From the NCBI GenBank assembly GCA_003538135.1, contig DPOR01000005.1, positions 111,470-175,469 on the forward strand: a DNA stretch of 64,000 bases, in the 5' to 3' direction. The notes beneath the pieces were generated by a model that saw only the letters and a list, made by a program, of their open reading frames with translations, searched no databases and had not been told where the DNA came from. This document shows, piece after piece, positions 1 through 57,171 of the stretch. The number at the start of each line of letters is the position of its first letter. Within the stretch, counting starts at the first letter, position 1. The position numbers and the translations under genes are program-made. This DNA is from Oscillospiraceae bacterium. GTDB lineage: Bacteria; Bacillota; Clostridia; Oscillospirales; Acutalibacteraceae.

Positions 1-558
1 GCCGCAGCGCGGGCAGTAGGGCACTATCTTGAAGCCCTTATAGAGCAGGCCCTTGTCCCAAATCTGCTTGAGTGCCCACCACTCGGACTCGATAAAGGTG
101 TTGTCATAGGTGACGTAGGGGTGCTTCATATCGGCCCAGAAGCCGACCTTGCCGGAGAAATCCTCCCACATACCCTTGTATTTCCATACGCTCTCCTTGC
201 ACTTCTTGATAAAGGGCTCGAGACCGTATTCCTCTATCCCCTGCTTGCCCTCGATGCCGAGCAGCTTCTCGACCTCTATCTCAACGGGCAGACCGTGGGT
301 ATCCCAGCCGGCCTTTCGGGGCACCATATAGCCCTTCATGGTCTTGTAGCGCGGGATCATATCCTTTATAACTCTCGTCAGCACATGGCCGATATGCGGC
401 TTGCCGTTTGCCGTCGGCGGGCCGTCATAGAAAGTGAAAGTCTCCGCATTTTTGCGCGAGTCGATGCTCTTCTCGAAGATGTGGTTCTCGTTCCAGAAAT
501 CGAGCACCTTTTTCTCGCGGTTGACGAACTCGAAATTCGTCGATACCTTGTCGTACAT
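1..558 (-). CDS. ileS: Isoleucyl-tRNA synthetase, N-terminal part (gene continues past window start)
   Basis: Reverse-strand translation from the ATG at 558 gives [11 protein letters not shown]...[20 protein letters not shown] (class I HIGH motif)...WDTHGLPVE, typical IleRS. Not in the ORF track because it runs off the window edge. Confidence 0.85.
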
Positions 559-905
559 AACAGCTATCCATCCTTTCAGGGAATCGCGGACGGAAACAAA
601 AAAGGCCTCTGCCCATAACAGGACAAAGACCCGGCTTTGCAACCACCCACTACATTCAATTAAATGCCGCCCGGTAACGGTGGGACGCGCCGTCGGAATC
701 TACTCGGCTTTCGCCTTTCGTCCCGCTGCTCGGGAGTGATGTTCGCTCCTGCGCCGAGTACCGACTTTCCACTGCCGCCGGCTCACTTTGTCTCTTTGCG
801 CAAGGCTACTGTCTCCGTCATAGCCTTTCAGATATGCTCATTTAGTGTTGCACCCGACAGGTACAACATTAAGGTGATTATAATACTTTTGGATTTATTC
901 GTCAA
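559..905 (-). promoter_or_regulatory. T-box leader (Ile specifier AUC) with sigma-A promoter and intrinsic terminator, upstream of ileS
   Basis: Reverse strand: TTGACG-17-TATAAT promoter (about 877-905). Stem I carries an AGAGA motif. Specifier-loop-like GAACAUCAC has codon AUC (Ile) followed by a purine (about 738-740). T-box-like GUGGGUGGUUG (about 641-652). An 11-bp terminator hairpin plus U6 (about 596-631) lies just 5' of the ileS ATG. Confidence 0.7.
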
Positions 906-925
906 TAGGTTTGAGCCGACTATTT

Positions 926-1096
926 TCAGTCGGTATCGGTATTCATGATCAACTCATAAGCCCTCATGCATTCGTCGGCGGTCAATCCCGTCTCGTTCTG
1001 CATAAACGCCACGGCCTCCTCCGATTTCTCGAATTTCTCCAAAACATCCTTTGCCTCGGAAAATCTTTTTACCGCTTTTTCGAATTCATTACCCAT
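926..1096 (-). CDS. Small hypothetical protein (56 aa), last gene of the HydS-like operon
   Basis: ORF-track ORF trimmed to the internal ATG at 1096, which has a GAGGAGAAAAGTT RBS. Begins MGNEFEKAVKRFSE... No recognisable family. Confidence 0.45.
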   Translation of the reverse strand: MGNEFEKAVKRFSEAKDVLEKFEKSEEAVAFMQNETGLTADECMRAYELIMNTDTD

Positions 1097-1145
1097 AACT
1101 TTTCTCCTCTCAAGGTGCCGCACCGACGGGTGAAGCAGGTTTAGT

Positions 1146-1478
1146 TTATATAAGCCCCGACAGGCTGACTGCTGTTTCATAGGCGTTCTTCGCGGTCTGA
1201 TATACCGCAACGCCGTTTTGCTCTGCGCGGATACGCGCGTCCTCATCGAGGGGCGCGGACTCCGTTAAAATAATGCAGGCTATGTCCGCGAGCGCCGCCA
1301 CGCCTATGGCGTTGACATTGCCCATGACGGTCATCCACGCGTCCCCCGCCGTTGCGCGGGACATGACCCAGCTCAAAAGGTCGCCGCAGTAGCCGCCAGT
1401 GACCTCGCGCGAAAGCGATTCCTCGCTCTCGCACAGAGCTTTAAGCTCAAGCCTTTCTTTTATATCCCCTACGGTCAC
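1146..1478 (-). CDS. DRTGG domain protein
   Basis: ORF-track protein contains TGGYCGDLLSWVMSRA...AIGVAALADIACIILTE. GTG start with a strong AAAGGAGGAG RBS. Overlaps the stop of the upstream gene. Confidence 0.7.
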   Translation of the reverse strand: MTVGDIKERLELKALCESEESLSREVTGGYCGDLLSWVMSRATAGDAWMTVMGNVNAIGVAALADIACIILTESAPLDEDARIRAEQNGVAVYQTAKNAYETAVSLSGLI

Positions 1479-2785
1479 TTCGTCTCCTCCTTTTTGCCCG
1501 TGCTCCTGAACGGCGCGGGAATATACTCCTGCATATCCGTGCCCGCGAGCTCGTCGCGCATGGCGAAAACGCAGTCGTGGAGCGTCGCGCTGCCCCTGAC
1601 TATATCCTCGGCAAGGGCGCGGCAGGTGGGCGCGCCGCAGGTGCCGCAGTCAAGTCCCGGCAGGCGTGCTATTATTTCGGTCATCTTCGACATCATCGCC
1701 ATGGCGTCGGAGACGTTGTCTGCGAGCTTCAGCACGGACGAGCCCTCGAGCGGACACTGCCACTCCATGCTGTCGGGCACGTCGCCGTCCTCCAGATGAT
1801 TCGCCGCAACGGGCAGATATCTTCTGAGCTGCTGGATGCGCGCCTTTGCGACATACGGATTTTCCGCAGTCAGCGAGCCGCCGACGCAGCCGCCCGAGCA
1901 GGCGTTCAGTTCGACGAAATCGAGCCTGTCAAGCTTTTCGTCCTCTATCTCCTCAAGCACTTTTATGACATTCTCTATGCCGTCCGCGGCCAGATATTTG
2001 TCCTTGAGCAGAGCGGCAGATTCGCCGCCGCTCGACGCCCAGCTGACTCCCATGAGCCCCGACTCGCAGGCGTCCTCCGGCGCTCCGAGGTGGTTCATCT
2101 GCTTTAAAAGCACAGGGTATATATCTTTCATCGCTATCGCCGCGTCAACGTTTGACTCCGGCAGGCAGATTGGCTGCTTGACGGCGGTTATCTTCGCGGG
2201 GCAGGGCGTGATAAAAAATATGCCTATCTCCGAAGAATCGAGTCCCGTCTTGGCCTGCGCCTCTTTGTGCGCTATCATGGCGGCGGTCTCCATGGGAGAG
2301 TTGAGCGGCAGAACGTGGGGAATAAGATTCGGGAAGCAGACCCTTATCAGCCGGCACACGGCGGGGCACGCCGAGGATATGACGGGCTTGGGGATATCGT
2401 GCTCCGCGATATATTTTCGCGTAGCGTCGCTTATCAGTTCGGCGCCCCTTGCCACCTCGAAAACCTCATCGAAGCCGAGCCTTTTCAGAGCCGTTATGAC
2501 ATAGCCGATATCGTCAAGGTGGTTAAACTGCCCGTAGAGCGAGGGCGCGGGCAGAGCTACTCTGTATTTGAACTCGATTATTCTGTTCATCGAGTCGCGG
2601 TGCGAATATTTTGCATGGTGCGGGCAGACGCGGATGCACTCGCCGCAGTCGATGCAGCGTTCGGAGATAATATGCGCCTTGCCGTTTCGCACGCGGATAG
2701 CCTGCGTGGGACATCGCTTTATGCAGTTGGTGCAGCCCATGCACTTCTCCTCGTCGAGCCGCACCGAATGGAAATACGTGTTCAT
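1475..2785 (-). CDS. [FeFe]-hydrogenase-family protein, HydS-like putative sensory type (2x[4Fe-4S] ferredoxin N-term, H-cluster domain, C-terminal Cys4 domain)
   Basis: N-term CMGCTNCIKRCP...CIDCGECIRVCP. H-cluster motifs L1 SSACPAV (the proton-relay Cys of the TSCCP motif is replaced by Ala), L2 TPCPAK, L3 ELNACSGGCVGG. C-terminal DCGTCGAPTCRAL. Start set at MNTYF (2785) with a GGGAGGG RBS. Confidence 0.85.
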   Translation of the reverse strand: MNTYFHSVRLDEEKCMGCTNCIKRCPTQAIRVRNGKAHIISERCIDCGECIRVCPHHAKYSHRDSMNRIIEFKYRVALPAPSLYGQFNHLDDIGYVITALKRLGFDEVFEVARGAELISDATRKYIAEHDIPKPVISSACPAVCRLIRVCFPNLIPHVLPLNSPMETAAMIAHKEAQAKTGLDSSEIGIFFITPCPAKITAVKQPICLPESNVDAAIAMKDIYPVLLKQMNHLGAPEDACESGLMGVSWASSGGESAALLKDKYLAADGIENVIKVLEEIEDEKLDRLDFVELNACSGGCVGGSLTAENPYVAKARIQQLRRYLPVAANHLEDGDVPDSMEWQCPLEGSSVLKLADNVSDAMAMMSKMTEIIARLPGLDCGTCGAPTCRALAEDIVRGSATLHDCVFAMRDELAGTDMQEYIPAPFRSTGKKEETK

Positions 2786-2838
2786 ATGGAAAACCCTCCC
2801 GGCGCCCGCGGACACGGGCGCTCAGTCAGCAATCGTTA

Positions 2839-3264
2839 TTATATACTGTTATACACTTTGAGCCTGATAGTCGTTCCGACATCCTTTTCCGTCTCTATGT
2901 TCATCTCATCGGTATACTTCTTTATATTGGGCAAACCCATGCCCGCTCCGAAGCCGAGGGCGCGCACCTTATCGGGCGCGGTCGAATAGCCCTCCTGCAT
3001 GGCGAGCTCGACATTCTCTATGCCGGGGCCGTGGTCGGTGAGCACCATGGAAATGCACTCGGGCGATATCTCGACGTCTATCTCGCCGCCGCCCGCATGA
3101 ATGACCATATTTATCTCGCCCTCATACATGGCTATCGAGACGTTTCTTATCACGTTGGCGTCGAAGCCGAGCCCCTTGAGCACGCGCTTGGTCTCGCCGG
3201 ACGCCTCGCCCGCGCGGGTAAAATCCTCTCCGTCAACGTCAAAGTGGAGCTTCATATTATCCAT
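2839..3264 (-). CDS. HATPase_c serine-protein kinase, anti-sigma-factor (RsbW/SpoIIAB)-like
   Basis: 141 aa; ...HAGGGEIDVEI...DHGPGIENVELAMQEGYST...GFGAGMGLPNI, a GHKL ATPase fold of the partner-switching kinase type. Confidence 0.75.
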   Translation of the reverse strand: MDNMKLHFDVDGEDFTRAGEASGETKRVLKGLGFDANVIRNVSIAMYEGEINMVIHAGGGEIDVEISPECISMVLTDHGPGIENVELAMQEGYSTAPDKVRALGFGAGMGLPNIKKYTDEMNIETEKDVGTTIRLKVYNSI

Positions 3265-3613
3265 TTGCCGCCCGTCCTCCTCTCAGCCCTGCCTGATAGA
3301 GCTTTCCGCAGGAGGTAAACATTTCGAGCTCGGTTTTGAGCACGACTATATCAAGCTCACGTGCAAGGTCGAGTATCGCGTCACCCGGCACCTTGCCGCG
3401 CACGAACACTATGACCTTCATATCCATCATTTCGGCGGTACGCACGACCTGAGGATTGACAAGCCCCGTGAGCAAAACAGCCTGCTCCTTGACAAACGCG
3501 AGCACGTCGCTCATCATGTCGCTTCCGCAGGCGGTATGCACCTCTCTGTCCAGATGATCGCCGCCGCAAAGCAGTTCGGCCGAAAGAATTTCTTTAAGCT
3601 GTAAAACAGTCAT
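3257..3613 (-). CDS. DRTGG domain protein (first gene of operon)
   Basis: Trimmed to MTVLQLKEIL at 3613 (AGAGGGTGGAG RBS). Contains GDHLDREVHTACGSDMMSDVLAF...VLLTGLVNPQVVRTAEMMD. Confidence 0.7.
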   Translation of the reverse strand: MTVLQLKEILSAELLCGGDHLDREVHTACGSDMMSDVLAFVKEQAVLLTGLVNPQVVRTAEMMDMKVIVFVRGKVPGDAILDLARELDIVVLKTELEMFTSCGKLYQAGLRGGRAANG

Positions 3614-3674
3614 TATACTCCACCCTCTTAGCAAAGTTCTCAACTTTTTCGGAGTTTTCCTCCGACTTATGTTG

Positions 3675-3703
3675 ATTATAACATGACAGTGCGGTCTTTT
3701 CAA
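3675..3703 (-). promoter_or_regulatory. Sigma-A promoter of the DRTGG-kinase-HydS-like operon
   Basis: Reverse strand TTGAAA-17-TGtTATAAT (extended -10) about 60 nt upstream of the 3613 start. Confidence 0.5.
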
Positions 3704-3744
3704 CCTCGGGGAAATAAAAACGGGCGGTATTTATCCCGCTGATC

Positions 3745-3866
3745 CCTTCGCAATCTGCTTGCAGGGTCGAGCTTTGCTCGCCTGCTGTAGTTGCTTCATA
3801 AACCGCGGGCGGATAATATCCGCCCCTACACGGTTGCGATATACGCAAGCTGCTGTAATTTTGCGG
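3745..3866 (+). repeat. Intergenic repeat module A, copy 1 (122 bp)
   Basis: About 95% identical to 4215-4336 (offset 470 bp). Contains the hairpin GGCGGATaatATCCGCC and the string cccctacacggtt. Confidence 0.85.
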
Positions 3867-3877
3867 CTATTCACTCT

Positions 3878-3912
3878 GCAGGGTGCGGCGACTCGACGCA
3901 CCGCTGCCGCCG
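3878..3912 (+). repeat. Palindromic unit B (GGGTGCGGCGACTCGACGCACCGC type)
   Basis: Hairpin GGTGCG-gcgactcga-CGCACC followed by tgccgcc. Same unit at 4071-4106, and in inverse orientation at 62613-62660 and 61958-61990. Confidence 0.8.
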
Positions 3913-3967
3913 TCAAAAGCCCAAGTACAGACAATGAAGCCGGGATTTGCGGGAGATAAGCAATTAC

Positions 3968-4023
3968 GGCTCCCCTGCAGGGGAGCTGGCTCGGCGAAGC
4001 CGAGACTGAGGGGTTATTGCACG
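3968..4023 (+). repeat. Repeat module C (double hairpin GGCTCCCCTGCAGGGGAGC / CTCGGCgaaGCCGAG)
   Basis: Near-identical inverted copy at 61830-61884. Confidence 0.8.
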
Positions 4024-4070
4024 GATTCGCCCGATTTTTTCACGGCTGTTTAATTCTTCAATGTCCTTTT

Positions 4071-4106
4071 GTAGGGTGCGGCGACTCAACGCACCGCTGC
4101 CGCCGC
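4071..4106 (+). repeat. Palindromic unit B
   Basis: cttttgtagggtgcggcgactcaacgcaccgctgccgccgcagg; reverse complement nearly identical to 62613-62660. Confidence 0.8.
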
Positions 4107-4188
4107 AGGCGGCACAGAGGGCAAGCCGCAAGCAGAAAGCGTATTGCACAACGCGGATGAATAAATAGATTTTCGGTGACGCTAATGC

Positions 4189-4220
4189 GTCAAAGGGTCG
4201 TCGAGTCGCCGACCCCTACG
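4189..4220 (-). repeat. Palindromic unit B, variant (GGGTCGGCGACTCGACGACCC)
   Basis: caaagggtcgtcgagtcgccgacccctac; same variant at 54585-54617 and 62511-62546. Confidence 0.75.
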
Positions 4221-4336
4221 CAAGCTGCTTGCAGGGTCGAGCTTTGCTCGCCTGCTGTAGTTGCTTCATAAACCGCTGGCGGATGATATCCGCCCCTACA
4301 CGGTTGTGATATACGCAAGCTGCCGTAATTTTGCGG
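4215..4336 (+). repeat. Intergenic repeat module A, copy 2
   Basis: Direct repeat of 3745-3866. Confidence 0.85.
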
Positions 4337-4350
4337 ACGAACAAATTTTG

Positions 4351-4395
4351 CCCCTACGGTGTACCGCTTGCAATTGCGCCGCAACTCCCGATTTA
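4351..4395 (+). repeat. Repeat module D (cccctacggtgtaccgcttgcaattgcgccgcaactcccgattta)
   Basis: Related copies at 55134-55178, and fragments at 36583-36604 (inverted) and 36675-36706. Confidence 0.6.
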
Positions 4396-4481
4396 TCAAT
4401 CTCTTTAATCATCTCATAAAGCTTCAGCGCATACAGCAAAAATCGCCGGGAAATATTCCCCGGCGATCGAATCGACTGAAA

Positions 4482-5192
4482 TCATTGCCAATTGAAAACT
4501 ACTGTATATCCGTTTATGGCTTCTCCGAAGAGAGCTTTCAGTGTTTCTTCTGCGCTCTTTTGAGCGGTCTCAATTATTCCTTTTTCCTTGGCATCGTTTA
4601 TCAACTTTTTCTCAAGCTCGGATTGGGCGGCAGTGAAGTCGCCTATTGTGAGCTGATTAAAAATGTTTTTGGTCTGCTTGGCATCCTTTATTGATGACGG
4701 GTCGATATAGACATTTGTTATGCTTATCTTTATGTTGTCTATAGTTATGACATTGGTCTTCGAATTGACATTGATATTTGCGTCTGCAAGGTTCTCTATT
4801 CCGGCCTCAACATATCCCGTAAAAGTAAACGACATGGACTTGCCGTTCATTTTCAGCTTTTCGGAAAGCTTGTTGGCATACATTTTTCCGGAATCATATG
4901 TTGCAACCTGCTTATAGATACCTGTGTTCAGCTTCGCCTGCTCTTTCAGCGTCTCTTCGAGGATTTTCGTTGTAGATGCGGAGTAGGAATTCGGGAACAG
5001 CTTGAACATTATGTCATCCCAGTGCCGTCCGCAGACTACGCCCGCTCCGAGACCTATCGCAAGAGTCAGGATAACCGCAACAATAATCTGGAAAACCTGC
5101 TTTGCGCCCTTCTTCTTGATGCCCTTGAGCTCGCCCTGAATGTTGTCGAGTGCTGCCATCAGTTCCTGATTTTCTGTTCTTTCTTCAACCAT
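4482..5192 (-). CDS. DUF4230-like membrane-anchored protein
   Basis: Trimmed to MVEERTENQ (AGAGGAATCGTT RBS). N-terminal TM helix; ...GYVEAGIENL...ITIDNIKISITNVYIDP pattern. The gene is noticeably AT-richer than its surroundings. Confidence 0.55.
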   Translation of the reverse strand: MVEERTENQELMAALDNIQGELKGIKKKGAKQVFQIIVAVILTLAIGLGAGVVCGRHWDDIMFKLFPNSYSASTTKILEETLKEQAKLNTGIYKQVATYDSGKMYANKLSEKLKMNGKSMSFTFTGYVEAGIENLADANINVNSKTNVITIDNIKISITNVYIDPSSIKDAKQTKNIFNQLTIGDFTAAQSELEKKLINDAKEKGIIETAQKSAEETLKALFGEAINGYTVVFNWQ

Positions 5193-5231
5193 AACGATTC
5201 CTCTTTCACAAGATATTTCTGTATCGCGCAT

Positions 5232-5263
5232 TTTGATTATATCAAATCAAAATCATATAATCA
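5232..5263 (-). promoter_or_regulatory. Sigma-A promoter embedded in a 10-bp-arm perfect inverted repeat (putative operator)
   Basis: TTGATTATAT-12nt-ATATAATCAA. Read on the minus strand it gives TTGATT-17-TATAAT about 40 nt upstream of the 5192 start. Confidence 0.5.
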
Positions 5264-5322
5264 ACACATATTGACAAAATGCGCGCGTCTGTCCGTTTTA
5301 TCAGACAGACGCGGCTCCGCTT

Positions 5323-6147
5323 TTAGTCTCTCAGTTCTGTTAAATTCGCTACGATCTCTGCCTCAAGCTTCTTTTGCTGGCTTGCAGTTAAACGATCCGA
5401 GGTTCTTACCAAAACAGTTCCGACTACCCGATGCGAACCGGAGGCCAGACGCGAGCCGTCAAACTGAGCCAGATATTCGCATCTTTTTTCTGCATCTTCC
5501 CTGGTAACATATACTTCTATCGAACCCCCGCCGTCGGTTCCGTTATCAATAATCGTACCGTCAAGCCATCCTCTGTCTTCTGCTTTGATCTGACTTGACG
5601 CAAAATAGACTGTTGATGTATATCCGCCCGGCTTGTTCAGGTTGCCGTTGGGGTCATTATCCTCAGTTACACCCGCATATCCGGTTATAGTATCAATGTC
5701 CCTGATTCTTTCAATAATAAATGCCTCCGACGGATTTGTAAGTTGTTTCATTATCCTGATGCTGTTTTCAAGATTTGTCTTTGCCGTGGCCAGCATTTCT
5801 TTTGTTTCAACATAGCTGATTTTCTTCAGCTTTTCATTTACAAGCTCATTGATTTCTTTCGCATTGCCTCTTTTTTTGGGTATTTCAACAATCGCCGCCC
5901 TTGAGTCGGCAACTGCGGTTTCAAGAGTTGTTACCGTTGTTTTATCATACGGCTCCTCATGTGAATCAATGAGTTTCTGACTTTCTGCTATCACCTTTTC
6001 GAGGTCGTCGCGTTCCGCATTTATCCTTGTGCATTCCCTATCATAGTTCGCAACCGCCTGCTTGCGTTCTTCACTGCAGCCCGAAAGCAGAAGCACGACA
6101 GACAATATAATCGCTATCACAGATACAAAGCGTAAACTTCTTTTCAT
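5323..6147 (-). CDS. Lipoprotein, function unknown (coiled-coil N-term, Gly/Thr-rich C-terminal domain)
   Basis: MKRSLRFVSVIAIILSVVLLLSGC lipobox. Downstream hairpin plus T-tract terminator at about 5270-5320. Confidence 0.6.
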   Translation of the reverse strand: MKRSLRFVSVIAIILSVVLLLSGCSEERKQAVANYDRECTRINAERDDLEKVIAESQKLIDSHEEPYDKTTVTTLETAVADSRAAIVEIPKKRGNAKEINELVNEKLKKISYVETKEMLATAKTNLENSIRIMKQLTNPSEAFIIERIRDIDTITGYAGVTEDNDPNGNLNKPGGYTSTVYFASSQIKAEDRGWLDGTIIDNGTDGGGSIEVYVTREDAEKRCEYLAQFDGSRLASGSHRVVGTVLVRTSDRLTASQQKKLEAEIVANLTELRD

Positions 6148-6161
6148 GTTTATACATCCTT

Positions 6162-6446
6162 TCATTTTTTACCGTCATTGACGATTTTTCTGACCCATTT
6201 TTCGCTGTAGCCGTATTTTGTGGCGAGCTGCTTTATGTTGCTTCCGTCATACTCGGCCGCAATACGGCTTGATATGAATTCGTTCGAAAAAAAGTTTACC
6301 GGAAAATTGATCTGCTGGCCGCGGAATTCGGAATGCAGAGTCACGGCGGCTTCGATGCCGAGAAGATCGGAAATTTCGCTGTACACACCGTTCAGGTATT
6401 CACTTTTGATATCCTTTGAATCCATATCGGTAAAGACCTCTTTCAT
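6162..6446 (-). CDS. Mor-family-like small HTH regulator
   Basis: 94 aa; C-terminal ...IKQLATKYGYSEKWVRKIVND HTH resembling the Mor/C transcription-activator family. AGAAAGGAG RBS. Confidence 0.5.
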   Translation of the reverse strand: MKEVFTDMDSKDIKSEYLNGVYSEISDLLGIEAAVTLHSEFRGQQINFPVNFFSNEFISSRIAAEYDGSNIKQLATKYGYSEKWVRKIVNDGKK

Positions 6447-6645
6447 TTTTGCTCCTTTCTATTATGACTTGTCCAAACGGACTTTCATAGAGCGGCAGTT
6501 CCCGCGAACTGTTCATCGGAACAATTCAACGGGAACTTCTTTCGCTCTCATAACAGAAAATGTTTTTTTCGCGAGGTTACGATATGAGTCATGTTTATTG
6601 ATTTTTAAGATTAATCAAATTCCGCAGATGTTTTGTACAAAATAA

Positions 6646-6672
6646 AAAAGCAGCCCCGCTTTTGCGGGACTG
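6646..6672. terminator. Hairpin terminator (bidirectional-looking)
   Basis: aaaaaaGCAGCCCCGCttttGCGGGaCTGCc, downstream of the minus-strand gene ending at 6693. Confidence 0.5.
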
Positions 6673-6692
6673 CCGAACGCCGAATGTCGGAC

Positions 6693-8432: not shown

Positions 8433-9629
8433 TTGATGAAGTACAAAAAGGACGACGGCAAAAAAGATAATTGGCTCGATGATATTCTTTGGGGTGTCCC
8501 GTTAGGAGACAGCTTTGCCATAAATCTTAAAAGCGGCGAGGTTATTCCGCGCTATCGCATAGGCGACGGGTTCATTCCGGGCGAGAACGGCGACGATGAT
8601 TGGGAGAAGGACGAATTTGCCTTTAACGCCGATGATGATTGGGATAAGGAGGATTGGGAAAAAGACGAATTTGCCTTTGATGACGACGATGATGACGATG
8701 ATGAATACGAATTCGAGCTGTCGTTTGATTTCGGAATCCGCGACGCGTCCGAGTTCAGCCGCCGCGACGCGGACACGACAGAGGAGCAGTATTACGACCC
8801 CGACCGCCGGGTCTACTGCGTGGGCAGGGCGATACGCGACAATTTCAAGGAGATAGCCGACAGCTTTTCCGTAGAGGAGATGTTCTCGCTCGTCCAATGC
8901 ATAAACATCATCTTTTCGAGCAACCAAAAGCTCGCTGTCGACGCGGTGGCGTGGGCTGTTGAAAATTTTCCGAAGTCGCTCGAGGGCGCGACCTGCGAGG
9001 GCTATCGCTGCGGTCTGCCCACCGATCAGTTTTTGTCCGCCTTTACCTATACCGAGCACGGCGAGGACCGCAGCTTCGTCTACGACTATTTGGAGACTCA
9101 CCCGGAGTTTACAAAAGCGGTATTAAACCGTCAGCCGTTTTCGCTTCCGGGCTGGCCGACAAGGAACTATCTGCCGTATCTCGCCGAAAAAGGCGATGTC
9201 GAAAAATTCATCGAGGTATATAAGCTGCATATTGAAAACCCCCGTCTCGACCCCGTGGAATGCAGCAAGTTCAAGCTTATCGACGACCTTATTTTCCGCA
9301 TGAAAGACTGCTGCGACCACATCGACCACAGGATATATTCTTTCCTCAGGTCGGAGACGGAGTCCATGCCTGAGAAGCTCAAGGCGGACTATCTGCTCGG
9401 GCAGTTCGACTATGAGCGCTGCGGCAAGCCGCTGTTTGACAAGCCGCCCGGGCCCGGCAAGGAGAGCGTTTTCGCCCAAATAGAGCAGGCGCGAAGGCGC
9501 ATAAAGGAAATCGAAGAAGAGAGAAGCGGACTTTACCTCCGGATAAACGAGCTGGAAGAGGAGCGCGACCGCCAAGAGGAGCTGCTGAAAGAAATCGAGC
9601 GGCAGTATGCCGGCGAAGACGACATATGA
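8433..9629 (+). CDS. Hypothetical protein with acidic repeats (DDDWEKDEFAF x2, poly-Asp) and C-terminal coiled coil
   Basis: 398 aa; GGGAGGTG RBS. Internal repeat DDWEKDEFAFNADDDWDKEDWEKDEFAFDDDDDDDDE. C-terminal EIEEERSGLYLRINELEEERDRQEELLKEIE. No recognisable family. Confidence 0.6.
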   Translation: MMKYKKDDGKKDNWLDDILWGVPLGDSFAINLKSGEVIPRYRIGDGFIPGENGDDDWEKDEFAFNADDDWDKEDWEKDEFAFDDDDDDDDEYEFELSFDFGIRDASEFSRRDADTTEEQYYDPDRRVYCVGRAIRDNFKEIADSFSVEEMFSLVQCINIIFSSNQKLAVDAVAWAVENFPKSLEGATCEGYRCGLPTDQFLSAFTYTEHGEDRSFVYDYLETHPEFTKAVLNRQPFSLPGWPTRNYLPYLAEKGDVEKFIEVYKLHIENPRLDPVECSKFKLIDDLIFRMKDCCDHIDHRIYSFLRSETESMPEKLKADYLLGQFDYERCGKPLFDKPPGPGKESVFAQIEQARRRIKEIEEERSGLYLRINELEEERDRQEELLKEIERQYAGEDDI

Positions 9630-9804: not shown

Positions 9805-10344
9805 ATGAAAGCAACAGGCATAGTCAGACGAATCGACGACCTCGGCAGGGTCGTTATCCCAAAGGAGATCCGCCGCACGATGCGTATCCGCGAGGGTGAC
9901 CCGCTCGAAATATACACGGATGCGGACGGCGAGGTTATTTTTAAAAAGTATTCGCAGGTGGGCGAGCTGTCGTCTTTAACGGCGCAGTATGCCGAGGTTT
10001 TGCATAAGAGCACGGGGCTGCCCGTGGTGATAACCGACCGCGACAGGGTCATCTCCTGCGCGGGAGTGCCGAAAAAGGAGACAGTCGAGCGCAGGATAAC
10101 GCAGGCGCTCGAAAACGTTATGGAGAGCCGCACCCCGTTTATTTTCGCGCGGGACGGCGAACCCTTTCGCCCGATAGAGGGCGTCGAGCGCGACGCGGCG
10201 GCGGCGTTTCCGATAATCGGCGCGGGAGATGTGTCGGGCGCGGTGGTTCTGCTCGCCGCGGACGGCGCAACGGTGCCGTCGCAGACGGAGATAAAGCTCG
10301 TTCAGGTCGCCGCATCGTTTCTCGGCAAGCAGATGGAGGAATAG
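9805..10344 (+). CDS. spoVT: Stage V sporulation protein T (AbrB-type N-domain plus GAF)
   Basis: MKATGIVRRIDDLGRVVIPKEIRRTMRIREGDPLEIY (SpoVT/AbrB swapped-hairpin domain); 179 aa, matching SpoVT length and domain order. Confidence 0.85.
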   Translation: MKATGIVRRIDDLGRVVIPKEIRRTMRIREGDPLEIYTDADGEVIFKKYSQVGELSSLTAQYAEVLHKSTGLPVVITDRDRVISCAGVPKKETVERRITQALENVMESRTPFIFARDGEPFRPIEGVERDAAAAFPIIGAGDVSGAVVLLAADGATVPSQTEIKLVQVAASFLGKQMEE

Positions 10345-10395: not shown

Positions 10396-10583
10396 GAATG
10401 ACGGGTTTGGGAGAGAGCCGGTTTTCCGGCCACCGAAGGGGCGAAACTCTCAGGTAAAAGAACCGAGCCGGGACGGAGCTCTGGAAAGGCATTTGCACCG
10501 ACGAAGCAATCCGCGAAGCGGAGAATCTTTCAGGTAAAAAGACAGAGTACACCATTGTTTCTTATGGTGTACTCTTTTTTGTT
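10396..10583 (+). promoter_or_regulatory. Tandem glycine riboswitch (two aptamers) with terminator expression platform
   Basis: Aptamer 1: GGGAGAG...CACCGAAGGGGCGAA...CUCAGGUAAAAGAAC. Aptamer 2: CUCUGGAAAG...CACCGACGAAGCAAU...CUUUCAGGUAAAAAGACAG. Then hairpin AGAGTACACC-N12-GGTGTACTCT plus T6. Confidence 0.85.
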
Positions 10584-10595
10584 TCGGAGGGGTCT

Positions 10596-11279
10596 ATGGA
10601 TATTCTTATTTTCGTTTTCGAAATCATCGGCACCGTCGCATTCTCCGTCTCGGGCGCTATGACGGGGCTGAAAAAGAACATGGATATTTTCGGCGTTATG
10701 ATACTGGGCGTCATAACGGCCATCGGCGGCGGGGTCATACGCGACCTCGTCCTCGGCATAACGCCGCCCGGCACCTTCGGCAGACCCGTCTACGCGATAG
10801 TCGCAACGGTCACCGCGATAATAACATTTCTGCCCGCCGTGCACCGCCTTATCACGAGAAATCAGCATATCCGCGACTTCGTTCTGCTCGTTCTCGACTC
10901 GTTGGGGCTCGGCGTGTTTACGGTAGTCGGCATACAGACAGCCTACAGAGCCTCGAGCGAAAACAGCATCTTTCTTATATTATTTGTCGGAGTCATAACC
11001 GGTGTCGGCGGCGGAGTCCTGCGCGATGTGCTCGCGGGGGAGAAGCCGTACATATTCGTAAGGCATGTCTATGCCTGCGCCTCTATCGCCGGCGCCGTCG
11101 CCTGCATTATAATCTGGCGCTTCAACAGCACCGCCGCGGTTATTTCGGGCGCCGCGATAATATTTGTCATCCGTATGCTCGCCGCCCATTTCAGATGGAG
11201 TCTGCCAAAGGCGAACGGTCTCGCCCCGTCGGACGAAAAAGAGGCGGCCGAAAACGACGAGAACACGCAGGAAGTATAA
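10596..11279 (+). CDS. UPF0126/Gly_transporter family membrane protein (YicG/TRIC-like, two GGGxxRD repeats)
   Basis: Two-fold repeat with GGGVIRD and GGGVLRD. 227 aa. Located immediately downstream of the glycine riboswitch, as is typical for this family. Confidence 0.8.
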   Translation: MDILIFVFEIIGTVAFSVSGAMTGLKKNMDIFGVMILGVITAIGGGVIRDLVLGITPPGTFGRPVYAIVATVTAIITFLPAVHRLITRNQHIRDFVLLVLDSLGLGVFTVVGIQTAYRASSENSIFLILFVGVITGVGGGVLRDVLAGEKPYIFVRHVYACASIAGAVACIIIWRFNSTAAVISGAAIIFVIRMLAAHFRWSLPKANGLAPSDEKEAAENDENTQEV

Positions 11280-12218: not shown

Positions 12219-13550
12219 TTACGCTTTTGCCGCAAAGGCACAGGTAAAAATACCGCCGCTCTGCTTTGCGGCCACGTGCCCGCCGTACTTTTCGGCGGTC
12301 TCCTCGAGAATCTTCAGCCCGTAGCCGTGCTCGCCTGTGCGCTTCTTTTTCTTCTCCTCATAATCGGGAGCGACTGCGTTTTCGCTGCTTATATAGAGCA
12401 TTCCGTCGTTTTCGTCGACAAAGCTCTTTATCTTTATATATCTGTTGTCCTCGAGCGCCTCCGCCGCGTTTATCGCGTTGTCAAAAATATTGACATACGC
12501 CTTGCAAACGTCGACCTCCTCCATGCCCACGGATTTCGGCACATCGAGATTAAAGTCGTATGCAATGCCGTTTTCGCGGCACTCCTTGGCCTTGTTCGAG
12601 GCTATGGCATTGACGAGCGTGTTGGGGCAGAACTTCTCTATTTTTATATCCTCGACCTGAGTTTTGAGCTGGTCGAGCATTCGCTCCGCCGATTCGCGGT
12701 CAACCTCGGTTCCGCTGTGTACGACCTCATACGCCGTCTCGATTATGTTGGCGAGGTCATGGCGTATTTTTCGCACCTCGCCGCTGCTGTTTTCGAGGTT
12801 TCTGTAATATTCGAGATTGAGAGCGTTCTGGTAGTCCTTTATTCTCAGCTCCTCGCGCAGCTTCTCGTTCTGCGCCGAGCGCGACATGATATAGAACAAA
12901 ACGGCGTCTGAGATTATGCAGAGCACCGCCGCGATGCAGAGCATTATCATCGGCGCGCGGGTCGGGTCCTCAAGAAACGGCAGGCCGGTGTTCTTGTTCC
13001 TGAACCAGCCGTAGTAAGAAATTATCATCATCGCCGCCGCCATAACTATGACCTGGCTCAGAGGGAAGAAGATAAACGTCGCCATCTGCCCGCTTGGCAG
13101 GAGCATATTTTTTTGCCGCTTCATTCTCATATAGGTAAAGCCGGCAAAAAGCAGTATCAAAAGCACGGTATTGGGCAGAGAGACAAGATATGTCATAATG
13201 TCGTCATAGGGGTTCAGTCCGCAGGCGATACCGCCGCTGACGAGAAGCGCCGACACGAGATATGTAAACGACATAAGCACCACGGAAACAAAAAGCCTCG
13301 TTCTGAGCTTATCCTTGAAATAGACCACAGCCGAGAAAAAATAATATGCAAACGCCGGTATTTTAAAAAATACCGACGGCACATCATAAAAATATCGCTG
13401 GGAGAGCGCTATTGCGGCAAAGGGAATGAGTGTCAGAAAAAACACCGCATAGCGATTAAAGCGCGGCGTGAGGTTCATGCAGAGGAACAGCACCACGAGC
13501 GCTATCGAGAAAAAGTTAAAAACATACCAAAAGACATCAAAAAAGGTCAT
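12219..13550 (-). CDS. Sensor histidine kinase, polytopic AgrC/LytS-like (GHKL ATPase), partner of the LytTR regulator
   Basis: About 6 N-terminal TM helices; HDLANII phospho-acceptor region; C-terminal ...TGEHGYGLKILEETAEKYGG ATP lid. Start overlaps the stop of the response regulator (ATGA). Confidence 0.8.
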   Translation of the reverse strand: MTFFDVFWYVFNFFSIALVVLFLCMNLTPRFNRYAVFFLTLIPFAAIALSQRYFYDVPSVFFKIPAFAYYFFSAVVYFKDKLRTRLFVSVVLMSFTYLVSALLVSGGIACGLNPYDDIMTYLVSLPNTVLLILLFAGFTYMRMKRQKNMLLPSGQMATFIFFPLSQVIVMAAAMMIISYYGWFRNKNTGLPFLEDPTRAPMIMLCIAAVLCIISDAVLFYIMSRSAQNEKLREELRIKDYQNALNLEYYRNLENSSGEVRKIRHDLANIIETAYEVVHSGTEVDRESAERMLDQLKTQVEDIKIEKFCPNTLVNAIASNKAKECRENGIAYDFNLDVPKSVGMEEVDVCKAYVNIFDNAINAAEALEDNRYIKIKSFVDENDGMLYISSENAVAPDYEEKKKKRTGEHGYGLKILEETAEKYGGHVAAKQSGGIFTCAFAAKA

Positions 13551-14263
13551 TTTACCGAAGCTCCCTTGAAAAGCACATACTTGTCCGCCGACTCGGTTTT
13601 CTTCGAGCGGCTTATCGGAACGGTTTCTCCGTTCATCAAGACAAAATAAGTCGCCGTATATTTGGCAATATATCTTAAATTCACAAGATAGCTCTTATGG
13701 CAGCGGACAAAATTCGATTTAAGCTGCTCTTCCGCATCGTCCAGCTTGCCGTAGGTTGTGATCTTGTCCCCGTCCACCATATGTATCTCAACGGAATTCC
13801 GCTCGCTCGAGACGTAAAGTATTCTGTCGCTGTCTACTTTACCGGACACGCCGTGGCGGGAATATTCCAAATATTTTTTATTCGATTTGCGGCCGCCGCT
13901 GCGCTCGCGCTCGATATATCCGAGCAGAAGCGTCGGGTCTACGGGCTTATAGATATAGCCGCAGTCGTCGACCTTGACAAACGCCTTGGAGACGAGATCC
14001 TGATTTCCCGAGACAAACACTATTTTGATTCCCGGGCATGCCGCGCCTATGAAGCCGGCGATATCCACGCCGCTCTCGTCCTTGACGGCGATATCGACAA
14101 AGGCGAGGTCAAAGCTTTTGTCGGAGTTCTCCTGCGCAAGCCTTTCGGACAGCTCGGCGGAGCTGTGTACGCCGACAAGCTCTATATCCGGATATGCGCC
14201 TTCGATTATTTCCGATAGCTGTCTGACCATTGAGGGCTCATCGTCGCATATGAGAATACGCAT
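13547..14263 (-). CDS. LytTR-family response regulator
   Basis: Trimmed to MRILICDDEP (receiver domain, DD...D...K). C-terminal LytTR DNA-binding domain (FVRCHKSYLVNLRYI). Confidence 0.85.
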   Translation of the reverse strand: MRILICDDEPSMVRQLSEIIEGAYPDIELVGVHSSAELSERLAQENSDKSFDLAFVDIAVKDESGVDIAGFIGAACPGIKIVFVSGNQDLVSKAFVKVDDCGYIYKPVDPTLLLGYIERERSGGRKSNKKYLEYSRHGVSGKVDSDRILYVSSERNSVEIHMVDGDKITTYGKLDDAEEQLKSNFVRCHKSYLVNLRYIAKYTATYFVLMNGETVPISRSKKTESADKYVLFKGASVK

Positions 14264-14422
14264 AAAAAGTCCTGCCTTTCTTTGAGACTTAATCTTAATC
14301 AGATATATCTCAGTATACCTAAAATACGGACTTTTTGCAAGAAAAAAACCGCAAAATAAAAAATCACGTTCTGCTCTTTTCAAAGAGAAATAATTGTTGT
14401 ATAATTTTGATATATAAGAGTA

Positions 14423-16201
14423 TTGATGAGGGGTGTTCGTTTGTCCGGGGAGTATTCCAGCCGCAACCGCAGGATGCTCAAAAAGCTCCTGCCCTACTAT
14501 AAAAAATATTCGGGGCTCTTTGCCCTTGATATGTTCTGCTCCGCGCTGACTACCGTATGCGAGATAGCTCTCCCGCTGATAGTTCGGCAGATAACCGACC
14601 GCGCGGCGCACGACATTCACGACCTGACGGCGGAGCTGATTATAAAAATCGTCGGCTTCTATATCCTGCTGCGCATTATCGACACCGCCGCCAACTACTA
14701 TACGGCGTCGGGCGGGCATATCATGGGCGCAAGGATAGAGACGGATATGCGAAACGACCTGTTCTCGCATCTTCAGGATATGTCCTACTCTTTCTACGAC
14801 GACACGAAGATAGGCCAACTCATGTCGCGCATAACAAACGACCTGTTTGATATCACGGAGCTCTCTCACCACGGCCCCGAGAATGTGCTGATGACCGTGA
14901 TAAAGATAATCGCGGGCTTCATTATGTTCGCGTCGATGAACATATGGCTTGCGGTCATAGTCTTTTCGCTCTTGCCGCTTATGATGCTCCTGACCTCGCG
15001 CAGCCGCCGCAAGATGCGCGCCGCGTTCAAGCAGCAGAGGCGCGAGATAGGCGAGATAAACGCGCGCACCGAGGATTCTCTGCTCGGCATAAGAGTTGTC
15101 AAGAGCTTTGCAAACGAGGATATCGAGCGCGAAAAATTCAACGAGGGCTCGCGCCGCTTCTTCAAGTCCAAGCAGAACGGCTACAGATACATGGCGATCT
15201 TTCATTGCACCGTCCGGCTCTGCGACGGGCTTATGTATATAGCGATAGTCGGCATAGGCGCGGCGTTCATGATGAAGGGCAAGACTACCGTAGGCGACTT
15301 CTCGGCGAGCCTGCTCATGGTCAGCACCCTGCTCTCGGCGATACGCACGATAGTCGAGTTCAGCGAGCAGTTTAACCGCGGCATGACCGGCATAGAGCGC
15401 TTCACCGAGATAATGGACGAGGTCAGCGACATAAAGGACAGCCCCGACGCAAAGCCCATAGAGAACGTCAGGGGCGATATAGAATTCAGGAACGTCACAT
15501 TTTCATATAAGGGCACGGATAAGAAAATCCTCTCCGACTTCTCCCTGCACATAGCTCCTGGCGAGAATGTCGCTCTGGTAGGGCCCTCCGGCGGCGGCAA
15601 AACTACGCTGTGCAATCTTATCCCCCGCTTCTACGATGTGGATTCGGGCTGCATCTTGCTCGACGGCACGGATATCCGCGACATAACCCTCGCTTCCCTG
15701 CGCTCGAATATAGGCACGGTTCAGCAGGATGTCTATATGTTCTCCGGCACGGTCAGGGAAAATATAGCCTACGGCTGCCCGGGAGCCGAAAACGAAGATA
15801 TCACGGCGGCGGCCATGAGAGCCGGAGCGCATGAGTTTATAGAGGAGCTGCCCGAGGGGTACGACACCTATGTCGGCGAGCGCGGAGTCAAGCTCTCCGG
15901 CGGTCAGAAGCAGCGCATTTCGATAGCGCGCCTGTTTTTGAAGAACCCGCCGATAGTCATTCTCGACGAGGCGACGAGCGCGCTCGACAACGAGAGCGAG
16001 CGCCTTGTTCAGCAGTCGCTCGAAGCGCTCGCAAAGGGGCGCACGGTCATAACCATAGCACATCGTCTGACTACCATAAGAAACGCCTCGGAGATAGTCG
16101 TGCTCACGGAGGACGGCATAGCCGAGCAGGGCAGCCACCGCGAGCTTATGGCAAAAGGCGGCGTATACAGCGAGCTCTACAGCATGTATTCAATCGACTG
16201 A
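14423..16201 (+). CDS. ABC transporter, fused permease/ATPase exporter (MsbA/type-I exporter-like)
   Basis: 6-TM domain plus NBD with Walker A GPSGGGKTT, signature LSGGQKQR and Walker B ILDEATSALD. An alternative start at M18 (14474) is possible. Confidence 0.85.
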   Translation: MMRGVRLSGEYSSRNRRMLKKLLPYYKKYSGLFALDMFCSALTTVCEIALPLIVRQITDRAAHDIHDLTAELIIKIVGFYILLRIIDTAANYYTASGGHIMGARIETDMRNDLFSHLQDMSYSFYDDTKIGQLMSRITNDLFDITELSHHGPENVLMTVIKIIAGFIMFASMNIWLAVIVFSLLPLMMLLTSRSRRKMRAAFKQQRREIGEINARTEDSLLGIRVVKSFANEDIEREKFNEGSRRFFKSKQNGYRYMAIFHCTVRLCDGLMYIAIVGIGAAFMMKGKTTVGDFSASLLMVSTLLSAIRTIVEFSEQFNRGMTGIERFTEIMDEVSDIKDSPDAKPIENVRGDIEFRNVTFSYKGTDKKILSDFSLHIAPGENVALVGPSGGGKTTLCNLIPRFYDVDSGCILLDGTDIRDITLASLRSNIGTVQQDVYMFSGTVRENIAYGCPGAENEDITAAAMRAGAHEFIEELPEGYDTYVGERGVKLSGGQKQRISIARLFLKNPPIVILDEATSALDNESERLVQQSLEALAKGRTVITIAHRLTTIRNASEIVVLTEDGIAEQGSHRELMAKGGVYSELYSMYSID

Positions 16202-20235: not shown

Positions 20236-20325
20236 CCCTCTCAGGGTTCGAATCCCTTGAAAATAAAAAAAGAACGGAAGCAACACCTGCGGTATTGCTT
20301 CCGTTCTTGGCGCGCTGCAAGGGAT
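20236..20325. repeat. Tandem repeat copy 2 (includes the genuine tRNA-Arg 3' end and its terminator)
   Basis: See copy 1. On the minus strand, GAACGGAAGC-N15-GCTTCCGTTC plus T7ATTTT forms the terminator (about 20253-20300) immediately 3' of tRNA-Arg. Confidence 0.8.
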
Positions 20326-20384
20326 TCGAACCCCTGACCTTTTGGTTCGTAGCCAAACACTCTATCCAACTGAGCTAGCAGCGC
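20308..20384 (-). tRNA. tRNA-Arg (anticodon ACG), CCA encoded
   Basis: GCGCTGCTAGCTCAGTTGGATAGAGTGTTTGGCTACGAACCAAAAGGTCAGGGGTTCGAATCCCTTGCAGCGCGCCA has cloverleaf-compatible arms and anticodon loop CUACGAA. Confidence 0.9.
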
Positions 20385-38776: not shown

Positions 38777-38894
38777 GCGCTTCCCCTCCTTATAAATCAG
38801 AAAGTCTCTGCCTTATATAATATTACGCGCCCCCTCGGCGTGCAATGCAAAATTTTTGCCAGCTGAAAAAAAGGCAAAAAGAAAGGTTGATTTT

Positions 38895-40879: not shown

Positions 40880-41475
40880 ACATGACCTGGTTTTTTGATC
40901 TGCTCTCCACCGCGCTCTACACCGTGTTCATTCAGAACCTCGTCTTTAACGGCGGCTATGCGGCGAGCGAGGCGCTCATGCTCGCAAAGAAGCCGCGCAG
41001 GCTCTGGATGTTCTCGGCGATGATAGCATTCTTCTCGACCGTTACGGCTCTCGCCTGCCGCGCACTCGAGCTTGTCCCGCAGCACGCCAATCTGCCTGCG
41101 GCTCTGCATTTTGCGATGTACAGCGCCGTGCTAATAGTTGTGTTCCTGATAACGGGTCTTATTCTCAAGCTCGCCCTCGGCGCTACCGAGAAGTTCCTCG
41201 GCACGCTCGGCATGGCGGCGCTCAACACCCTTGTGCTCGCAACGCCCCTGCTCAACCGCAGCGCGGCCTACACCGTTCCCGAGAGCATCGGCTCCGGCAT
41301 AGGCGCGGGTCTTGCGTTCATCCTTGCGGCAACGCTCATATGCAAGGGACTTCACATAATCTCGCAGAATCAGGATATTCCCAAGGCCTTCCGCGGCACC
41401 CCGGCGGCGTTTATCTATGTCGCCCTGCTCTCGCTCGCGTTCTCCGGCTTCTCGGGAAGCTCCCTGTTCTCATAA
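40876..41475 (+). CDS. RnfA/NqrE-family membrane protein, both conserved Cys absent
   Basis: C-terminal IPKAFRGTPAAFIYVALLSLAFSGFSG matches the RnfA [27 protein letters not shown]. The LGLCP and TNCAVLG Cys positions read NGGYAAS and ALNTLVLA. Confidence 0.75.
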   Translation: MNMTWFFDLLSTALYTVFIQNLVFNGGYAASEALMLAKKPRRLWMFSAMIAFFSTVTALACRALELVPQHANLPAALHFAMYSAVLIVVFLITGLILKLALGATEKFLGTLGMAALNTLVLATPLLNRSAAYTVPESIGSGIGAGLAFILAATLICKGLHIISQNQDIPKAFRGTPAAFIYVALLSLAFSGFSGSSLFS

Positions 41476-57152: not shown

Positions 57153-57171
57153 TTGTGTCCTCCCCTTTCGC

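Follow-up and report, generated by a model that had tools for sequence, protein, structure and literature searches.

What does a hydrogenase-like protein do when it is encoded alongside a kinase-like ATPase and two DRTGG-domain proteins? The question is raised by a minus-strand locus of an Oscillospiraceae bacterium (family Acutalibacteraceae; assembly GCA_003538135.1, contig DPOR01000005.1), of which we analyzed positions 111,470 to 175,469, a stretch of 64,000 nucleotides (nt) referred to below as the window; coordinates are those of the window unless a related locus is named. The locus encodes HydS, a protein of the [FeFe]-hydrogenase family, together with a GHKL-family ATPase, two small DRTGG proteins (DRTGG-1 and DRTGG-2) and an open reading frame (ORF) of 56 amino acids (aa). 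We report that HydS very probably belongs to the group D [FeFe] hydrogenases, which are widespread in gut and fermentative Clostridia and are thought to sense H2, and that four of these genes form the core of a cassette conserved among related genomes. In the gut, H2 determines the redox balance of both fermentation and cross-feeding.

HydS carries the hallmarks of group D [FeFe] hydrogenases

The window ORFs were searched against Pfam and NCBIfam. HydS matched Fe_hyd_lg_C (PF02906; E 1.6e-33, residues 85-313), in agreement with the family assignment made in the original prediction, as well as the FeS domain PF04060 (E 3.9e-14) and two Fer4 motifs, and it aligned with the solved group A enzymes DdH, CpI and HDCR HydA2 at E ~1e-24. 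The H-cluster motifs were S137-S138-A139-C140-P141 (L1, opposite the TSCCP of HDCR HydA2 in the alignment), T193-P-C195-P-A-K198 (L2) and E292-L-N-A-C296-S-G-G-C300 (L3). In CpI, taken as the reference, the ligands are C300, C355, C499 and C503, plus K358, and the proton-relay residue is C299. The corresponding C140, C195, C296 and C300, plus K198, were all present in HydS, as had been claimed, and were invariant in 81 sequences comprising the window protein and 80 species-level relatives. Because SSACP aligns opposite TSCCP, A139 replaces the proton-relay Cys at the CpI C299 position and C140 is the cluster ligand equivalent to CpI C300, which is the substitution that had been proposed. An intact L1 Cys pair or an incomplete ligand set had been named in advance as possible refutations; the pair is not intact and the ligands are complete.

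Accessory clusters were recognized at both ends of the protein. Two N-terminal [4Fe-4S] motifs are formed by C15/18/21/25 and C44/47/50/54, and the C-terminal Cys4 domain described originally reads D379-C380-x2-C383-x4-C388-x16-C405. Residues A139, C140, C195, C296, C300, E255, D268, E292, C380, C383, C388 and C405 were 100% conserved in the 81 sequences, and Thr or Ser occupied the M353 position in all of them (T193 in HydS, with N294 at the M497 position). E255, E292, S252 and D268 make up an alternative proton path, in which the two Glu and the Asp were conserved in 100% and Ser or Thr at S252 in 91% of the sequences.

We compared HydS with TamHydS, the type enzyme of group D from Thermoanaerobacter mathranii, through published residue numbers and primer sequences. 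The proton-path residues sit at a constant +3 offset from TamHydS E252, E289, S249 and D265, the group-D-specific alternative path (PMC10407848), and the local sequences GGE and DF(F/V)E agree with those derived from the TamHydS primers. Charged residues around the accessory clusters of TamHydS were highlighted in 2026 (PMC13104023), and HydS has R31, R33, K36, K59, D379, E393, D394 and D404 near its own. Altogether, TamHydS residues A137, E252, E289, S249, D265, C379, C404, R30, R32, K35, K58, D378, E392, D393 and D403 were matched in HydS at offsets of +1 to +3.

Group D, also called M2e, has been defined by two N-terminal clusters, a Cx2Cx4Cx16C motif, the absence of a PAS domain, loss of C299 and replacement of M353 by Ser or Thr (PMC8163306). 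HydS shows all of these published hallmarks, which argues strongly, at the level of sequence, that it is a group D (M2e, TamHydS-type) 'putative sensory' [FeFe] hydrogenase; we consider this assignment very probable. It differs from group A in having SSACP for TSCCP and T193 and N294 for M353 and M497, and its NCBIfam scores for groups A and B1 were 106 and 150, against cut-offs of 406 and 450. Group C (M2f) proteins have a PAS domain after the C-terminal Cys4 cluster; neither Pfam nor NCBIfam detected a PAS domain in HydS, which ends 31 residues after its last Cys. Full-length relatives matched at E 1e-70 to 1e-163, compared with 1e-24 for the group A structures, these being the two sets compared. 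The Cys-to-Ala exchange, which the original prediction read as the signature of a slow, sensory enzyme, is, combined with the Cys4 motif, indeed the hallmark of the published 'putative sensory' class (PMC8163306, PMC10407848); its sensory function is hypothetical even for the type enzyme.

HydS is thus one more member, from an Acutalibacteraceae gut bacterium, of a biochemically characterized class. Published work already covers the class as such, its reading as 'sensory', the Cys-to-Ala signature and an adjoining kinase-like ATPase (PMC8163306, PMC10407848), so that the module is less unexplored than had been assumed: a 'histidine kinase-like ATPase' gene was described next to a member of the class (PMC8163306), and HydDB has a group C1 entry, in which [FeFe] group C1 is labelled 'histidine kinase-linked (putative)'. 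The exact window proteins are public as well, on hundreds to >1000 contigs of Acutalibacteraceae or 'Ruminococcus sp.' gut metagenome-assembled genomes, labelled 'iron only hydrogenase large subunit-like', 'anti-sigma regulatory factor / RsbT', 'DRTGG domain-containing' and 'hypothetical'. Group C1 of HydDB is presumably the same as group D. In a separate set of 30 diverse group D sequences (the window protein and 29 others), the proton-relay position was occupied by A, S, F, T, L, N, K or Y and never by Cys, and in 5 of these sequences C18, the second Cys of the first ferredoxin motif, was replaced by His, Ser, Arg or Lys.

A conserved cassette and natural gene fusions

The HydS family is large: at 90% clustering there were at least 8000 candidates at E 1e-10 (8000 of the 8000 scored passed), 570 clusters at 50% identity reached E <= 1e-30, and relatives are encoded in at least 597 species genomes. 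From the latter we took the best 80 species-level loci, whose hydrogenases are 53-70% identical to window HydS, called their ORFs and searched these with the window proteins. Two loci were interrupted by contig ends, leaving 78 informative ones, and 75 of the 78 had the gene order DRTGG-1, GHKL, HydS, DRTGG-2 and a gene for a PHP phosphoesterase. The three variants were L006, where the PHP gene has moved 2.3 kb upstream of DRTGG-1, L047, without DRTGG-2 and PHP, and L069, without DRTGG-1 and GHKL. A more remote locus (L089), with a HydS only ~35% identical, has kept HydS, DRTGG and PHP, followed by HydABC-type genes.

The fifth gene of the cassette (for instance, L004 9652-10365) encodes a PHP protein with all metal-binding His/Asp/Glu motifs and a conserved HSCLSPCG segment. 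The window has the four core genes and, in the position of the PHP gene, the 56-aa ORF. The 'five-gene operon' of the original prediction therefore needs to be restated: its five ORFs exist, while the conserved part consists of the four-gene core plus a PHP gene that has been lost in the window lineage, the fifth window gene being lineage-specific.

Fusions were sought by Pfam and sequence inspection among representatives of >500 aa within the best 150. GHKL was fused to HydS in P0268, a DRTGG-1-type domain to HydS in P0269 and P0314, and HydS to a DRTGG-2-type domain in P0252, P0258, P0360, P0387 and P0325. In every fusion, gene order and paralogue type are those of the cassette and the (S/C)-D-(L/M)-(L/M)-S motif is retained; three fusions were confirmed on their own contigs, and P0252 was found in two independent sources. 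Taken as Rosetta stones, such natural fusions are evidence of physical cooperation among the four core proteins. DRTGG domains in group D may take the place of the fused PAS domain of group C.

The DRTGG proteins and the GHKL ATPase

Both small proteins were confirmed as DRTGG proteins by Pfam (Table 1). Across 79 sequences, the set used for all DRTGG and GHKL conservation counts, DRTGG-1 had the invariant motif A28-C-G-S31-D32-M-M-S35-D-V-L-A39; the corresponding motif in DRTGG-2 is D33-L-L-S36. Comparison of the two families with hhalign gave a probability of 98% (E 6e-14) and placed D32-M-M-S35 on D33-L-L-S36, and the two proteins are evidently paralogues. Profile matches of the DRTGG family in the PDB were the DRTGG domains 3L2B, 3L31 and 2IOJ, all weak (E ~1e-3).

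The kinase-like protein likewise proved to be what had been predicted, a HATPase_c-type protein, with SpoIIAB structures as its sole relatives in the PDB (E 1.6e-5). According to Pfam, its 141 aa comprise the catalytic ATP-binding domain alone. The N box (E48/E50/N52), G1 box (D77-x-G79-x-G81) and G2 box (G104-G110) were at least 90% conserved, and the protein as a whole is more conserved than the hydrogenase (70-95% identity among the 120 best-listed 90%-identity clusters). It has no HisKA/DHp domain and the cassette no response regulator; two-component signalling was rejected on these grounds, a LytTR regulator/kinase pair at 12.2-15.2 kb being a separate system.

The original prediction also described the operon as a partner-switching-like module. 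This was not supported, since three of the four defining parts, a STAS antagonist, a PP2C phosphatase and a sigma factor, were found neither in the window nor as recurrent families in the 80 loci. No STAS gene was found among the window ORFs scanned, the small partners being DRTGG proteins; no PP2C was found in the window, relatives carrying the PHP-family phosphoesterase instead; and no sigma factor was found among the window ORFs scanned or among the families recurrent in the 80 loci. Canonical partner switching was rejected for want of these parts and because the PDB matches of the DRTGG family are not STAS proteins.

A bifurcating hydrogenase operon is the only recurrent neighbor

Clustering of the flanking ORFs of the 80 loci yielded one recurrent neighbor set only, a HydABC-type electron-bifurcating hydrogenase operon with genes for NuoE-like, second GHKL (~185 aa, HATPase_c/HATPase_c_3), 2Fe-2S thioredoxin-like ferredoxin and NuoF-like proteins. 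Adjacency was scored on the NuoE-like, NuoF-like, 2Fe-2S and GHKL-185 proteins; a 601-aa neighbor considered as 'HydA-like' was rejected, as it corresponds to the NuoF-like HydB. The set adjoins the cassette in 43 of the 80 loci, about half of the time directly downstream on the same strand and about half directly upstream and divergent. This frequent adjacency agrees with the published location of the TamHydS gene upstream of a trimeric bifurcating hydrogenase (PMC8163306). Families of transcription factors, sigma factors, STAS proteins or PP2C phosphatases did not recur near the 80 loci. The second GHKL protein (~170-205 aa in L017-L085, for example L064 814-1371, and in L089, 2893-3402) is encoded between the NuoE-like and 2Fe-2S genes, and is a possible signal receiver.

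Among the main ORFs of the 64-kb window, Pfam detected HydS as the only hydrogenase and neither a radical-SAM maturase nor a sigma factor or STAS protein. A six-frame search of the window for a PHP remnant or NuoE/NuoF-like genes returned only ferredoxin-motif cross-matches to HydS.

Organization of the operon

All five minus-strand ORFs claimed between 926 and 3703 were present (Table 1), with start codons ATG 3613, ATG 3264, ATG 2785, GTG 1478 and ATG 1096 that match the public gene calls of 118, 141, 436, 110 and 56 aa. The first 8 nt of the GHKL gene lie within the end of DRTGG-1, and DRTGG-2 starts with a GTG that overlaps the stop codon of hydS (GTGA); the operon is translationally coupled.

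Table 1. Features of the hydS operon in the window
Feature	Position	Strand	Basis
Promoter: TTGAAA, 17-nt spacer, TG-extended TATAAT	3675..3703	-	Scan and alignment of relatives
5′ leader with conserved AAAAGTTGAGAACTTTGCT block and ribosome-binding site AGAGGGTGGAG	3614..3674	-	Alignment with three relatives
DRTGG-1, 118 aa	3257..3613	-	Pfam DRTGG, E 3.9e-8
GHKL ATPase / putative Ser-Thr kinase, 141 aa, RsbT/RsbW/SpoIIAB-like	2839..3264	-	HATPase_c_2/HATPase_c, E 7e-10
[FeFe]-hydrogenase-family protein (HydS), 436 aa	1475..2785	-	Fe_hyd_lg_C, PF04060, two Fer4 motifs
DRTGG-2, 110 aa	1146..1478	-	Pfam DRTGG, E 5.5e-7
56-aa ORF	926..1096	-	Ribosome-binding site GAGAGGAG; no family match

The promoter proposed originally (TTGAAA-17-TGtTATAAT) was the best-scoring site in a scan of 600-4500, with 11 of 12 matches plus the TG; the same scan found 7 promoter-like sites where 2.6 are expected by chance. 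The block conserved with L001, L086 and L087 begins exactly at the -35 hexamer, and upstream of it lie three unrelated sequences. This onset of conservation at the -35 hexamer, despite the unrelated upstream sequences, provides good comparative support for the promoter.

Rfam, at its gathering threshold, gave no match within the operon. Downstream lies ileS (minus strand, window 1-905, running off the window start), with its own promoter TTGACG-17-TATAAT at 905-877 and an upstream T-box leader at 616-830 (56 bits, E 1.7e-11, under the Rfam gathering score of 93). No terminator-like site was found between the last stop codon of the operon (926) and this promoter, so that read-through from the hydS operon into ileS is possible.

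A lineage-specific 56-aa ORF and an upstream insertion

The 56-aa ORF had no Pfam or NCBIfam match, and phmmer found it only in the window lineage (L001/L002/L086-L088); its exact sequence is present on at least 1000 public contigs as a 'hypothetical protein'. In five genomes, the ORF and the 49-nt spacer preceding it were 97-98% invariant, compared with ~89% for the four operon genes, and the changes within the ORF were 1 non-synonymous and 1-4 synonymous. The RNA fold z-score of the region 926-1145 (minus strand) was -2.56. The ORF may act as a protein or as an RNA element, or may simply travel with the very conserved ileS leader. In the neighboring DRTGG-2, 12-19 codons differed synonymously and 5-8 non-synonymously from the relatives.

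Compared with L086-L088, the window has ~3 kb (3707-6692) inserted just upstream of the operon promoter, which is untouched. The insert contains 130-nt direct repeats at 3737-3866 and 4207-4336 (94% identical) and 36-nt repeats, and its minus strand encodes a DUF4230 protein (4482-5231), a 280-aa protein of no assigned family (5323-6165) and a Mor-family activator-like protein (6162-6446). L001 has a GmrSD/HNH gene at the insertion site, which points to a variable spot.

A possible signalling mechanism and its alternatives

On balance, the cassette is probably a signalling device that responds to H2. HydS would bind H2 as the input component of a hetero-oligomer that also contains DRTGG-1, DRTGG-2 and the GHKL protein; H2 would reduce the H-cluster and one N-terminal cluster, and the resulting conformational change would be sensed by the bound DRTGG domains and GHKL ATPase and would switch the ATP-dependent activity of the latter. 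The GHKL protein might then, most plausibly, phosphorylate the invariant Ser of D-(L/M)-(L/M)-S in the DRTGG proteins, or else the kinase might be sequestered and released, as RsbT is from the stressosome. In relatives, the PHP phosphoesterase would reset the state. The physiological target would most likely be the electron-bifurcating hydrogenase HydABC, whose genes adjoin the cassette in about half of the related genomes and not in this one. That the DRTGG serine is the substrate of the putative GHKL kinase is a tentative suggestion, which we regard as rather doubtful. Equally speculative is the scheme as a whole, in which DRTGG-1, GHKL, HydS and DRTGG-2, mostly with PHP, would constitute an undescribed H2 signal machine where DRTGG stands in for PAS/STAS and an ATP-dependent mark on the motif serine, erased by PHP, controls a bifurcating hydrogenase, the window holding a 'phosphatase-less' variant. 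If true, a DRTGG-based machine would govern the fermentation balance of abundant gut Clostridia via the bifurcating hydrogenase.

Several points weigh against a signalling device of this kind. Signalling by group D enzymes is a hypothesis, TamHydS included; TamHydS still catalyzes reversible H2 turnover (PMC8163306), and its C-terminal cluster is not reduced by H2 and needs a stronger reductant. The phospho-acceptor Ser of the DRTGG proteins is putative, and the AlphaFold2 model of DRTGG-1 was unusable (predicted local distance difference test 55, predicted template modelling score 0.33; 28 sequences of at least 81% identity). The GHKL protein scored 54.5 bits for the NCBIfam SpoIIAB family and 23.9 for RsbW, against cut-offs of 135 and 145, and the PHP protein is most closely related, among characterized proteins, to RNase AM and to nucleotide phosphoesterases of the TrpH/YciV type rather than to protein phosphatases. 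The window itself has no PHP gene, either in the cassette or elsewhere in the 64 kb, and no HydABC genes near the cassette; as had been noted originally, no transcription factor, sigma factor or STAS output was found among the ORFs scanned.

The alternatives were weighed against the same evidence. HydS could be a low-rate catalytic hydrogenase, for instance one that produces or consumes H2 as an alternative module or that serves HydABC as an extra subunit, with the DRTGG, GHKL and PHP proteins as assembly or accessory factors. Strict conservation of the alternative proton path, which argues that H2/H+ chemistry matters, suggests that turnover does too, and the cassette often adjoins HydABC genes. 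However, published rates are low and Hred is stabilized, GHKL ATPases and phosphoesterases typically belong to signalling systems and are not redox partners, the cassette includes no NuoE/NuoF-like or ferredoxin partner, and in the window it stands alone, far from any hydrogenase gene; we regard a catalytic role as unlikely. We give still less credence to a sensor of the redox pool (reduced ferredoxin or NADH) that would work through the three accessory clusters, with the H-cluster as an electron sink only. Such a sensor would account for the three [4Fe-4S] clusters with their conserved charges and for a C-terminal cluster requiring a reductant stronger than H2, but it would have no need for invariant H-cluster ligands and a proton path. 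TamHydS, moreover, combines slow and reversible turnover with a high affinity for H2, tolerance of CO, a stabilized Hred state and an H2-induced change in secondary structure, and both the affinity and the conformational change speak against a pure redox-pool sensor.

Very unlikely, in our view, is canonical partner switching, with the GHKL protein as an anti-sigma kinase acting on a sigma factor encoded elsewhere and the DRTGG proteins as antagonists. The nearest solved or curated relatives of the GHKL protein, SpoIIAB, RsbW and RsbT, would fit it, as would the invariant Ser in both small partners, yet the characteristic STAS, PP2C and sigma-factor genes were found neither among the window ORFs scanned nor among the recurrent families of the 80 loci, the DRTGG matches 3L2B, 3L31 and 2IOJ are of another kind and the SpoIIAB score is far below its cut-off. 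Least credible of all is that the window lineage retains the cassette only as a remnant, decaying or rewired. Loss of the PHP gene and of the HydABC link, HydABC genes being absent also near the 11 closest species-level loci (L006-L016), and the 3-kb insertion just upstream could be read in this way, but the four core genes are intact, the promoter is conserved and the functional residues are all kept. Divergence is mostly synonymous and the exact proteins occur on >1000 contigs; mostly synonymous divergence together with intact motifs argues against decay.

A signalling role is our preferred reading. The window locus is an ordinary member of its class, and the comparative data, comprising the cassette, the fusions and the frequent HydABC adjacency, name candidate partners that can be tested by co-expression; the DRTGG and PHP parts, the HydS fusions and the minimal GHKL nature of the 'histidine kinase' make the question of how PAS-less group D enzymes signal, and through which partners, directly testable.

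Other features of the window

A Gly_transporter-family gene (10596-11279) is preceded by a tandem glycine riboswitch (10398-10547, plus strand; 56.9 and 41.4 bits), and a SpoVT-like regulator is encoded at 9805-10344. The region 12219-16201, with a LytTR response regulator (within the ORF 13547-15205, minus strand; 239 aa in relatives), a GHKL_5 histidine kinase (12219-13550, minus strand) and a divergent ABC exporter, resembles systems of the peptide-signalling type and seems to have no relation to the hydS cassette. Genes at 38856-41475 (plus strand) specify an RnfD-like protein along with two membrane subunits of the Rnf-Nqr type, of which one is of unusual length (326 aa); RnfB and RnfC were not recognized among the window ORFs scanned. 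They may encode part of a ferredoxin:NAD+ oxidoreductase and would then bear on the redox economy that the sensor might serve. A parB-like gene, parA, a second parB-like gene, mnmG (gidA) and mnmE at 55272-63860 (minus strand) place the window next to the chromosomal origin region. The window also contains tRNA genes at 20311-20384, 50512-50593 and 50626-50698, and a 398-aa ORF without a Pfam match (8433-9629, plus strand) that has long acidic D/E-rich stretches and a C-terminal coiled-coil-like segment.

Comparison with known systems

The closest known system is that of TamHydS (PMC8163306, PMC10407848, PMC13104023), which shares with window HydS the 2x[4Fe-4S] arrangement, the H-domain, the Cx2Cx4Cx16C motif and the lack of PAS, as well as Ala at C299, Ser/Thr at M353, the alternative proton path and the accessory-cluster charges. 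In both cases the gene adjoins one for a GHKL ATPase, called 'histidine kinase-like' for TamHydS (PMC8163306). They differ in that the window host is a mesophilic gut Acutalibacteraceae, in that N294 occupies the M497 position, which is Leu in TamHydS, and in that the window cassette is not upstream of HydABC and has no AraC neighbor. According to the TamHydS authors, neither its route of signalling nor its native partners are known (PMC13104023, PMC8163306), and the published TamHydS accounts searched make no mention of DRTGG or PHP neighbors. In the searchable literature, we found no paper linking DRTGG or PHP proteins to these hydrogenases or anti-sigma factors to sensory [FeFe] enzymes, and none reporting HydS fusions or describing the 'histidine kinase' as a minimal SpoIIAB/RsbT-like GHKL protein without a His-phosphotransfer domain.

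Group C (M2f) proteins such as TmHydS and HfsB resemble window HydS in their N-terminal clusters, C-terminal Cys4 motif and loss of the proton-relay Cys, and their operons also hold Ser/Thr kinase or phosphatase genes. A change in adhE expression on deletion of hfsB provides genetic evidence for regulation. These proteins have a C-terminal PAS domain and links to PP2C-type phosphatases or kinases, whereas window HydS has no PAS domain and is accompanied by DRTGG proteins and a stand-alone minimal GHKL protein. The regulatory [NiFe] system HoxBC/HoxJ/HoxA of Ralstonia/Cupriavidus is similar in its logic to that proposed here, a slow, inhibitor-tolerant H2 receptor acting through a kinase on hydrogenase expression. 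It differs in its unrelated metal site and fold and in that HoxJ is a PAS-histidine kinase with a response regulator, the window operon having neither HisKA nor a cognate response regulator.

The SpoIIAB/SpoIIAA/SpoIIE/sigma-F, RsbW/RsbV/RsbU/sigma-B and RsbT/RsbR/RsbS stressosome systems likewise combine a ~140-aa GHKL protein (in the window a putative Ser kinase), with the same N, G1 and G2 boxes, and partners bearing an invariant Ser. By contrast, the window operon has no STAS, PP2C or sigma factor, its small partners belong to the DRTGG fold family and the phosphoesterase of its relatives is of the PHP type. The DRTGG domains of CBS-pyrophosphatases (3L2B/3L31), of phosphotransacetylase and of the stand-alone AF_1212 (2IOJ) are of the same Pfam family as the window proteins. 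Compared with them, the window type lacks CBS domains, is either stand-alone or fused to the hydrogenase, and is distinguished by its family-specific (S/C)-D-(L/M)-(L/M)-S motif.

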